From: a virus
Lineage: Duplodnaviria; Caudoviricetes
Reading direction: 5' to 3' (one strand)
IMG/VR virus record: IMGVR_UViG_3300032241_002115
Coordinates: 1 to 58,543 of that record
Length of the DNA: 58,543 bases
The position numbers and the translations under genes are program-made. Positions 19,794 through 21,059 of the stretch are shown here, piece by piece (positions within the stretch are counted from its first letter, which is position 1; each line of letters opens with the position of its first letter). The notes under the pieces are model-generated. The model ran no database searches. It had not been told where the DNA came from and saw only the letters and a program-made list of their open reading frames with translations.

Positions 19794-20153
19794 ATGTCAT
19801 TGAATGTAAACCGTCTGTTTCAGACCACAACTGTTCGTAATGTTGTTCGCGGAGCAGTTTCCAGCATTGTAGGTGCACTGGTAGCCTGGGGGACCACCAA
19901 GTGGGCCAGCCTGAGTACTGGTAGCCTGTCATATCTGGTACCAGTGTTCTCGAGTGCATACTTTGGTCTGATCCACCTATTGGAGGGCAAGTACCCACAA
20001 CTGGGTTGGCTTTTGGGTGTTCTGCCAAACAAGCCAGAGGTTGTAGTGCCAGCGCCAGTGCCCGCACCAGAGCCAGCGCCAGTTCCTGTCAAGGAGAATG
20101 ACCCAGTGGCCAATAAGGCACCTGCTGCCAAGAAGGCTGCACCAAAGAAGTAG
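19794..20153 (+). CDS. holin-like membrane protein
   Basis: AAGGAG RBS; two hydrophobic segments; LE.KYPQLGWLLG; PA-repeat and AAKK tail. Confidence 0.6.
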   Translation: MSLNVNRLFQTTTVRNVVRGAVSSIVGALVAWGTTKWASLSTGSLSYLVPVFSSAYFGLIHLLEGKYPQLGWLLGVLPNKPEVVVPAPVPAPEPAPVPVKENDPVANKAPAAKKAAPKK

Positions 20154-20160
20154 TAGTTTT

Positions 20161-20183
20161 TCCCTGGTAGCTCAATTGGCAGA
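20161..20183 (+). pseudogene. 5' fragment of a tRNA (acceptor 5' strand + most of the D arm)
   Basis: TCCCTGG-TA-GCTC-AATTGGCA-GA, then an abrupt switch to AT-rich DNA; TCCCTGG can pair with CTGGGGA at 20792-20798. Confidence 0.75.
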
Positions 20184-20235
20184 AACATTTATTAACTCAA
20201 TGATGTAATAATTATGTTTTGTTATACTATCTAGT

Positions 20236-20676
20236 ATGATAAACAAAAATGTTATTGCAGTTAATAAAAGAAGACGAAAGCTAAAGGCTCTTGTTGTTGA
20301 ATACATGGGAGAAAGATGTCATCGATGTGGTTGGGATGAGCACCAATCCGGTTTAATCCCACACCATGTCGATGAAAGCAAAAAATCTTTCAGTATAGGT
20401 ACTGGTGGTCAAACCAGAAGCTGGGAAAAAAATAAACAAGAATGTAATAAATGTATTCTTCTATGCGCAAACTGTCACCATGTAATACATGCAACTAATG
20501 AAGAATATTATTTTAATGAAGATAATATACCTAAATATAATGATTCTATAGGAGAAAAAGCACATAAACAACTGCCTAACTGCCTAGATTGTGGTAAAGA
20601 AATATCAGTTAGAGCCTTGCGTTGTAAATCATGCAATGGTAAAATGAATGCATTAAAAAGATCCGCCCTAGCATAA
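20236..20676 (+). CDS. HNH endonuclease with C-terminal Zn ribbon (homing-type)
   Basis: CHRC...PHHVD...CILLCANCHHVIH; CLDC...CKSC; AT-rich relative to flanks. Confidence 0.88.
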   Translation: MINKNVIAVNKRRRKLKALVVEYMGERCHRCGWDEHQSGLIPHHVDESKKSFSIGTGGQTRSWEKNKQECNKCILLCANCHHVIHATNEEYYFNEDNIPKYNDSIGEKAHKQLPNCLDCGKEISVRALRCKSCNGKMNALKRSALA

Positions 20677-20733
20677 TGGCAATGCACCAAACTGTTAATT
20701 TGCAAGATCTTGGTTCGAATCCAAGGGGCGGAG
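20662..20733 (+). tRNA. trnN: tRNA-Asn (GTT)
   Basis: Full cloverleaf: TCCGCCC/GGGCGGA, GCAT/ATGC, CAAA-CTGTTAA-TTTG, CTTGG-TTCGAAT-CCAAG, discriminator G. Confidence 0.9.
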
Positions 20734-20752
20734 CATAATCCTCATATGGTAG

Positions 20753-20799
20753 GCTGACTGTTAATCAGCGGGTTCCTGGTTCGAGTCCAGGCTGGGGAG
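20753..20799 (+). pseudogene. 3' portion of tRNA-Asn (GTT) lacking a contiguous D arm
   Basis: GCTGA-CTGTTAA-TCAGC-GGGTT-CCTGG-TTCGAGT-CCAGG-CTGGGGA-G. Confidence 0.8.
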
Positions 20800-20802
20800 C
20801 TT

Positions 20803-20892
20803 TAGGAAGGATGCCCTGTATCGTAAGAACAGGGAGTCTGTTCGATCAATGCGCTAGGTGACCTCTACGAACAGGGTGCTGACTCCTTCCTA
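20803..20892 (+). ncRNA. candidate structured ncRNA in the tRNA island
   Basis: 9-bp closing stem TAGGAAGGA/TCCTTCCTA; internal CCCTGT/ACAGGG and CTGTTCG/CGAACAG stems. Confidence 0.45.
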
Positions 20893-20897
20893 TACAA

Positions 20898-20976
20898 CCG
20901 GAGAGGTGCTGCGTTGGTTGCGGCAGTGGAGCTTATATCTCCATGGACACAGGTTCAATTCCTGTTCTCCGGACCA
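20898..20976 (+). tRNA. trnI: tRNA-Ile with TAT anticodon, atypical arms, CCA encoded
   Basis: CCGGAGA/TCTCCGG acceptor; GTGGAG-CTTATAT-CTCCAT; ACAGG-TTCAATT-CCTGT; ends ACCA. Confidence 0.8.
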
Positions 20977-21059
20977 TTTAAAACAACTCCAGTACCACCT
21001 AGATAATGTAGGGTTTTCTACATGTCCAGCGCCACAAGTGGCAGAATACGGAGATTATC

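Follow-up and report, generated by a model that had tools for sequence, protein, structure and literature searches.

In a 58,543-nucleotide (nt) stretch of viral DNA (IMG/VR record IMGVR_UViG_3300032241_002115, the whole of which we call the window), a transfer RNA (tRNA) gene for asparagine, tRNA-Asn(GTT), is interrupted by an insert that holds the gene for an HNH endonuclease and a second, divergent tRNA-Asn(GTT). The insertion into the tRNA gene is precise, the open reading frame (ORF) of the nuclease is intact, the carried tRNA is likewise intact and has the anticodon of the gene that is broken, and the same layout recurs elsewhere. We consider it probable that the insert is a free-standing homing-endonuclease cassette, which disrupts the tRNA gene that it targets and brings along a divergent substitute. 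A first-pass annotation of the sequence had proposed such a homing element that disrupts its target tRNA, and this interpretation is supported both by the uninterrupted sites found in related phages and by the recurrence of the layout. In what follows the broken gene is termed the resident tRNA-Asn and the carried one the cargo.

The 5' fragment of the resident gene (20161–20183, on the plus strand like all the parts of this locus) reads TCCCTGGTAGCTCAATTGGCAGA and corresponds to tRNA positions 1–23, that is, the acceptor 5' strand and the D arm (5' stem strand and loop) up to the second base of its 3' stem strand. The 3' fragment (20753–20800) corresponds to tRNA positions 27–74 and supplies the anticodon arm (loop CTGTTAA, anticodon GTT), the variable loop, the T arm and the acceptor 3' strand. 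As noticed in the first-pass annotation, the acceptor strands of the two fragments pair over 7 base pairs (bp), including two G.U pairs. When compared by blastn-short with the tRNAs of related loci, the fragments match the intact tRNA-Asn of the closest relative, L009, at 23/23 (E 3e-7) and 48/48 positions (E 4e-22), and therefore are not chance matches. Since the intact L009 gene consists of the 5' piece, the letters GCA and the 3' piece, the two are indeed halves of a single gene; the earlier estimate that about 2 nt are lacking when they are joined came close, the actual gap being these 3 nt. The 3' fragment is also 88–91% identical to annotated tRNA-Asn genes of cultured phages, and in a comparison of the DNA of the region with cultured phages only the tRNA parts matched (20 records, none with more than 2% of the query covered).

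Relatives of the locus were retrieved via a C92-peptidase-like protein encoded 600 bp upstream, and three of them (L009, L010 and L011, with 96%, 95% and 77% identity in that protein) have an uninterrupted tRNA-Asn at the same place. The flanks correspond closely, the upstream DNA being 94.4% identical to that of L009 over 1184 nt and the downstream 141 nt being 100% identical to L010. Further, contigs from two other lake-water metagenome runs (X2 and X3) join position 20183 to 20753 with only GCA between them. Because both the relatives and these contigs hold an uninterrupted gene at this point, the locus is, on comparative grounds, an insertion into a formerly intact tRNA-Asn gene and not a set of decaying duplicates; the empty-site alleles speak against three independently decaying tRNA-Asn copies, which the first-pass annotation had named as the arrangement that would count against its proposal. 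A joint between 20183 and 20759 in a third run (X1) was rejected as an empty site: 9 other letters lie between its sides, the shorter of which has 24 letters, and we read it as another tRNA gene. A parallel search for relatives with a 525-residue protein encoded downstream gave 30 pattern matches, none of them confirmed.

The insert itself (20184–20752, 569 bp) has a G+C fraction of 0.341, as against 0.46 upstream, 0.49 downstream and 0.471 in the window as a whole, which agrees with its earlier description as AT-rich and, given the contrast with its flanks, points to a foreign origin. It opens with a leader (20184–20235), in which AAC at 20184–20186 replaces the resident GCA and TAACTCAATGATGTAAT occupies 20193–20209. 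The 17-nt leader junction has the same length as in two related cassettes (L071 and L082), with 4 substitutions; in L082 and in L065/L071 the 5' resident fragment reaches position 26 (...GCAGAGCA|AATTATTAAC...). As these junctions align at equal length, with the AAC of the window standing for GCA, the alignment indicates that the insertion in fact lies between tRNA positions 26 and 27 (26|27). The leader has the motif ATGTAAY in common with those of a second cassette type (type B, described below). At the other end, an 18-nt tail, ATAATCCTCATATGGTAG (20735–20752), contains the core TCCTCATATGGTA, which is common to the type B cassettes L045, L083, L085 and L093. The promoter-like motif claimed for the insert is present in letters (TGTAAT-N15-TACTAT at 20204–20230), but a sigma-70 scan, which returned 7 sites where 3.0 were expected, placed none there, and the sole plus-strand site in the cassette region begins within the 5' tRNA fragment. 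To the eye, TGTTATACT at 20221–20229 resembles a candidate extended -10 element. The leader motif TAACNNAATGATGTAA occurs once in the window and has at least one match in 37 of 100 shuffles, and so is not a repeated promoter motif of the phage.

The nuclease ORF (20236–20676, 146 residues) stands alone with its own start and stop, and combines an N-terminal HNH core with a C-terminal CxxC...CxxC ribbon. It matches three PHROG families of HNH endonucleases (phrog_2255, E 5e-20; phrog_3106, E 3.9e-17; phrog_35854, E 1.2e-13), which sustains its initial identification as an HNH gene; neither Pfam nor PHROG gave a match to a GIY-YIG domain. Across seven aligned relatives C28, C31, H44, C77, N79, C80 and H81 are invariant, comprising the His/Asn/His residues and two CxxC zinc pairs, and some of the shorter relatives have a precomputed PF01844 annotation. 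Full-length relatives are rare, being confined to five clusters (P0002–P0006) among 155 matches, the rest of which share only the N-terminal nuclease core. A tblastn search of cultured phages returned 318 records, all below 60% identity and none covering 80% of the protein, and among viral contigs the protein had a single weak match (L007, 39% identity over 33 residues), at a locus devoid of tRNAs. The last four codons and the stop codon of the ORF lie within the cargo tRNA: the TAA is at 20674–20676 and the tRNA starts at 20662, which reproduces the 15-nt overlap first reported. Two of the full-length relatives, P0003 and P0005, end in ...HSALE and ...HSGVVQ, respectively, and these ends resemble the tRNA-encoded tails ...SALA (with the Asn cargo) and ...HSGVV (with a Gln cargo, below); to judge by these residues, their ORFs may also read into a downstream tRNA.

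The cargo (20662–20734) is called as a tRNA-Asn(GTT) by ARAGORN and matches the Rfam tRNA family with 61.2 bits (E 1.9e-12; gathering score 29), so that both programs bear out the claim of a complete, divergent tRNA within the insert. It is identical to the resident tRNA-Asn in 51 of 74 alignment columns and differs in the other 23; having the same anticodon as the resident, it is a divergent isodecoder, and the label of isoacceptor initially given to it was wrong. Around the 26|27 junction the resident has GGCAGAGCA|GCTGACTGT and the cargo GGCAATGCA|CCAAACTGT, about 5 of the 18 bases being different. The two share the anticodon loop, and the anticodon stem differs in every pair in type B and in 3 of 5 in the type of the window (type A). 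In an alignment of seven distinct cargo variants 98.6% of the cells form standard pairs, and three pairs have changes on both sides; of 500 shuffled controls none reached this paired share and one reached the covariation score, and slid controls gave 35–54%. This pairing, along with the compensatory changes across the seven variants, fits a cargo tRNA that is kept functional under structural selection.

Additional copies of the cassette were found by scanning for the D-arm pattern of the cargo tRNA. Those of type A nearest to the window (L065/L071, which are one sequence, and L082) have the same cargo tRNA and an HNH protein 76–77% identical to that of the window; here the ORF ends 4 nt short of the tRNA, and the 3' resident fragment is shortened to the T arm. 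In another relative, L014 (a contig recorded also as L008, L060 and L100), the cargo tRNA agrees with that of the window in 73 of 73 positions, although the flanking protein is only 72% identical. The HNH gene was lost there by a deletion at the microhomology AATTGGCAGA / TAATGGTAGA that left 22 nt; its ends are TAATGG-TAGA, at the 3' end of the HNH gene, and AATTGG-CAGA, in the D loop of the tRNA. The type B cassette (L045, with L057, L059 and L093, the last probably from the same phage as L045; L070; L085) splits the same resident tRNA-Asn in the anticodon loop, the halves in L045 matching the resident gene at 32/32 and 40/40 positions. Its nuclease (161–163 residues) belongs to the Endonuclease_7 branch of the HNH enzymes (PF02945, E 3.2e-20), and its cargo is identical to that of the window in 63 of 73 positions, with the same tail core TCCTCATATGGTA. 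The type B ORFs, too, end in ...SALA* within the tRNA, because the same first 15 tRNA bases are read.

Among the type B copies, L070 and L085 have TTAA(T) flanking the insert on both sides. L083 has the type B 3' junction, yet the half that follows comes from another resident allele, that of L036. The anticodon stem GCGCA of the 5' half of L085 is unable to pair with TCAGC of the 3' half, as would be expected if a conversion tract had ended within the element. Every stage from the full cassette to the bare replacement is present among the relatives: the HNH gene is lost, with the cargo, tail and 3' half retained, in L074, L081/L099, L083 and L056, and in L101 the cargo tRNA stands alone with the ribosome-binding site of the next gene directly after it. 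As to frequency, 12 of the 45 metagenome loci with the D-arm pattern fall in the A/B cassette family, and at ten an HNH-type ORF ends close to the tRNA start, from 4 nt upstream of it to 15 nt downstream (four of these ten ORFs and, for type B, that of L045 were checked against profiles, and the others were assigned by similarity, with some of the loci being duplicates of one contig or sequence). Among 49 sequences that were examined, 18 had a called tRNA-Asn, which in three was flanked by resident halves. Apparent fragments in L015 and L020 were rejected as split halves, being tRNAs cut by the contig ends.

The order of half tRNA, HNH gene, same tRNA and half tRNA, a survey of which had been suggested as a check, recurs with other nucleases and at other tRNAs, those for Gln and Ile lying within this phage group. 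In L014 (5808–6668) and L026 (5705–6563) a tRNA-Gln gene is split in the anticodon loop, the order being 5' half, leader, a 225-residue HNH gene (phrog_10822, E 2.3e-55), cargo tRNA-Gln and 3' half; the ORF reaches its end and stop within the first 15 nt of the cargo, and the acceptor strand of the 3' half pairs with that of the 5' half. In L009 (5790–6074) and L010 the place of the neighboring tRNA-Ile(TAT) is taken by an Endonuclease_7 remnant (PF02945, E 1.8e-10) with a different tRNA-Ile(TAT), which is followed by 30/30 nt of the window-type tRNA-Ile. The latter is whole in the window (20898–20976) and in L011, and the polymorphism is therefore reciprocal, since L009 and L010 are empty at Asn. 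Finally, in an unrelated contig (L064/L086, on the reverse strand of the stored loci) a resident tRNA-Asn with the acceptor TCACCCA/TGGGTGA is split, the order being 5' half TCACCCATAGCTCAGTCGGTTAGAG, a 167-residue HNH gene (phrog_2255, E 4.1e-36), cargo tRNA-Asn and the 3' half from CTGTTAAG. A separate observation concerns L083 (1–147), where a tRNA-Asp 5' piece, GGCCTTGTAGCTCAGTTTGGTTAGAGCGCTACCCT, is followed at once by a complete and different tRNA-Asp; from its arrangement this pair may be another replacement scar, in this case without a nuclease.

For the homing cassette we picture the following cycle. In a mixed infection the HNH enzyme would cut or nick the intact tRNA-Asn of a cassette-free relative near the junction of the D stem and the anticodon stem. 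The genome of the carrier would be spared, for its resident gene is already split and its cargo differs at the site, a difference that is plain in the sequences and would confer the immunity. Repair of the break from the carrier, with the tRNA halves and any further flanks serving as homology arms, would then copy the cassette in; such copying gains support from insertions that share a site but differ in array context and resident allele, and from the chimeric halves of L085. The cargo tRNA, with its intact cloverleaf and compensatory changes, would take over the decoding of Asn codons lost with the split gene. As the end of the ORF falls within the tRNA, maturation of the tRNA 5' end would cut the HNH message upstream of its stop codon and probably keep the enzyme at a low level, by analogy with T4, where the segB stop codon abuts tRNA-Arg and tRNA processing has been proposed to limit SegB expression (PMC2330249). 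Later, the HNH gene would decay and be deleted and the fragments would erode, leaving the cargo as the new tRNA-Asn.

Several points weigh against this account. We infer the cleavage of the intact allele, the resistance of the split site and of the cargo gene, and homing itself from comparisons, with all the relatives being uncultured contigs. IMG/VR and Joint Genome Institute records are partly duplicates, and counts of loci overstate the independent events. The nearest cassette copies (L071 and L082) are only about 76% identical in the HNH protein, leaving no recent donor in hand, and run X1, a possible source of the window, contains the cassette allele alone at this locus, with no polymorphism within the sample. 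Outside PHROG, Pfam gives no significant HNH match for the protein (none at E <= 0.1), a sequence search of the PDB returned no matches at E <= 1, and a Foldseek search with an AlphaFold2 model (mean predicted local distance difference test score 77.6) gave weak hits, the best at E 0.034 and none at E <= 0.001, the top rows all being HNH nucleases (Cap5, Gme HNH, Cas9 HNH and McrA). The occurrence at the same site could in part reflect one old insertion followed by rearrangement of the arrays. Also, both halves of the target are kept, unlike in homologous gene conversion from a syntenic donor, and the first insertion therefore needs an illegitimate or microhomology-based event.

The same features have to be asked of other explanations. 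Bacterial and phage tRNA genes can carry group I introns with homing endonucleases, and by that precedent the insert might be an intron, or the halves might be joined in trans, such that the resident tRNA-Asn is still made. This is very unlikely: at E <= 10 Rfam finds only the tRNA family in the region and no intron, ARAGORN calls no additional tRNA in 20101–21050 even with introns allowed or thresholds relaxed, and the joined halves lack 3 nt, which leaves the 3' strand of the D stem incomplete and position 26 absent. Moreover, the insert already holds a complete tRNA, and the site is at the junction of the D stem and anticodon stem and not in the anticodon loop; a group I intron in the tRNA gene was accordingly rejected. 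We also think it improbable that the insert is a passive recombination scar, in which an HNH and tRNA-Asn segment of a low-GC relative was pasted in by illegitimate recombination, the HNH enzyme being uninvolved and having another target or none. The arrays of this phage group are admittedly highly mosaic, with unrelated ORFs (for instance, methyltransferase-like ones) between the tRNAs, and the retention of both target halves does point to a non-homologous first event. However, the layout is shared by at least four different nuclease genes (HNH-A, the Endonuclease_7 type, the 225-residue HNH and the HNH of L064), each of which adjoins a tRNA with the anticodon of the gene that it splits, and the junction of type B is identical in two alleles of the resident gene and in several array settings; chance pasting would not repeatedly bring together a nuclease, a cognate tRNA and a cognate target.

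A different proposal, compatible with homing and departing from it on the question of maintenance, is an adaptive tRNA swap, in which the stems of the cargo escape an anticodon-directed nuclease or other tRNA-targeting defence and the HNH gene is a mere vehicle. The cargo and resident do share the anticodon loop and differ in their stems (all the pairs in type B, 3 of 5 in type A), and the cargo outlives the nuclease in the HNH-less L014, L074, L081/L099, L083 and L056, with L101 being a clean replacement. There is also a precedent in the SegB-driven amplification of tRNA genes that aids phage T6 in evading the Septu defence (PMC13096335). Survival of the cargo after the loss of the nuclease is, however, equally expected of a purely selfish element, which would leave the cargo behind because the resident gene is already broken, and we hold that such a defence-driven swap has little likelihood as the explanation. 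The homing cassette with its own replacement gene continues to be the reading that we favor.

With regard to the wider setting, the window (58.5 kb, completeness estimate 38%) codes for portal, major head, tail fibre and tail sheath proteins, which marks it as part of the genome of an uncultured phage with a contractile tail. A conserved, structured RNA of about 90 nt (20803–20892) separates the split tRNA-Asn from the tRNA-Ile; it is closed by a stem of 9 bp (TAGGAAGGA...TCCTTCCTA) and contains two hairpins, and from only three sequences RNAalifold predicts 27 pairs, 2 of them with compensatory changes. It matches no Rfam family at E <= 10 and is not called by ARAGORN, and its position recalls the small stable RNAs that end the T4 tRNA cluster (PMC2330249). 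The shortest tRNA array has 342 bp (L011) and the longest about 3.6 kb (L027), and in L027, L036, L039 and L045 low-GC genes amounting to 2–3 kb are inserted between tRNA genes, two of the inserted ORFs being candidate methyltransferases, judged by eye. In another unrelated viral contig (L058, 586–1284) an ORF for a 202-residue GIY-YIG/NUMOD endonuclease runs right up to a tRNA with the anticodon CTA, which ARAGORN labels Pyl and which looks like a suppressor.

Taken further, these observations lead us to a tentative generalization, about which we are slightly more doubtful than confident: that phage tRNA arrays host modular, natural 'home-and-rescue' drives. Several HNH types and Endonuclease_7 would be interchangeable within a frame of leader, recoded tRNA and tail, each landing in its cognate tRNA gene, the halves of which would act as portable homology arms into any phage with that tRNA, irrespective of its adjacent genes. 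The result would be a permanent replacement of tRNA alleles throughout phage populations, making these drives a main driver of array turnover, and the 5' end of the tRNA would double as stop codon and as a processing-dependent off-switch. Homing endonucleases have been thought to survive in essential sequences either via splicing elements or beside a resistant allele; the cassette would represent a third solution, where the target is broken outright and a complete, recoded spare is brought along. If true, this would account for the variability of phage tRNA arrays and their richness in nuclease genes, and would offer a route for sweeps of tRNA alleles between diverged phages. It would also provide small HNH enzymes with a known target gene, an immune gene and a mapped insertion point, and such pairs of enzyme and target would be starting points for understanding how these nucleases read DNA.

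In the literature on SegB and homing that we searched, with subscription journals and a part of PubMed Central lying outside the search, there was no description of a tRNA split by a nuclease cassette with a tRNA of the same anticodon. The closest known system is the intronless homing of T4 SegB, from which the cassette differs by sitting inside its target without splicing and by carrying a whole replacement gene. SegB cleaves tRNA genes, prefers the tRNA-Asn gene of T2L, recognizes a T-loop motif and drives the co-inheritance of neighboring tRNA genes (PMC2330249), and its homologues are enriched within 1 kb of tRNA genes (PMC13096335). Like SegB of T4 and T6, the nuclease in the window is encoded by a free-standing gene in a phage tRNA array (PMC2330249; PMC13096335); SegB acts on the tRNA genes of relatives that lack segB, and an equivalent cleavage is probable here. 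The differences are nonetheless considerable, for SegB is a GIY-YIG enzyme and the present one is HNH; SegB lies between tRNA genes and the region of the rival is replaced by gene conversion, whereas this cassette lies within its target and both halves stay; and the cargo here, unlike with SegB, is a tRNA with the broken gene's own anticodon. Further, the motif read by SegB is shared by the T-loops of many tRNAs, whereas the insertion points of the cassettes are in the region of the D and anticodon arms.

Other homing systems offer partial parallels. In the intronless homing, or marker exclusion, of T4 by SegF, SegG and MobE, the nuclease gene lies beside a cleavage-resistant allele of its target, and repair co-converts the resistant allele into the recipient (PMC2988022); there, the target stays whole with its sequence converted, whereas here it is interrupted and a second complete gene is in the insert. 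As with intron and intein homing endonucleases (PMC3943268), the element is located inside its own target site, which is thereby destroyed, making the carrier presumably immune; introns and inteins, though, restore the host gene by splicing, whereas the cassette has no splicing element and carries a duplicate instead. The same logic, of a nuclease that disrupts a needed gene and carries along a recoded, uncuttable rescue, underlies the HomeR and cleave-and-rescue gene drives (PMC7968924; PMC10592828). These drives are engineered, Cas9-based constructs of insects and plants; the cassette, if our interpretation is right, would be a natural, protein-guided counterpart of such home-and-rescue drives, with the likeness being one of design only.

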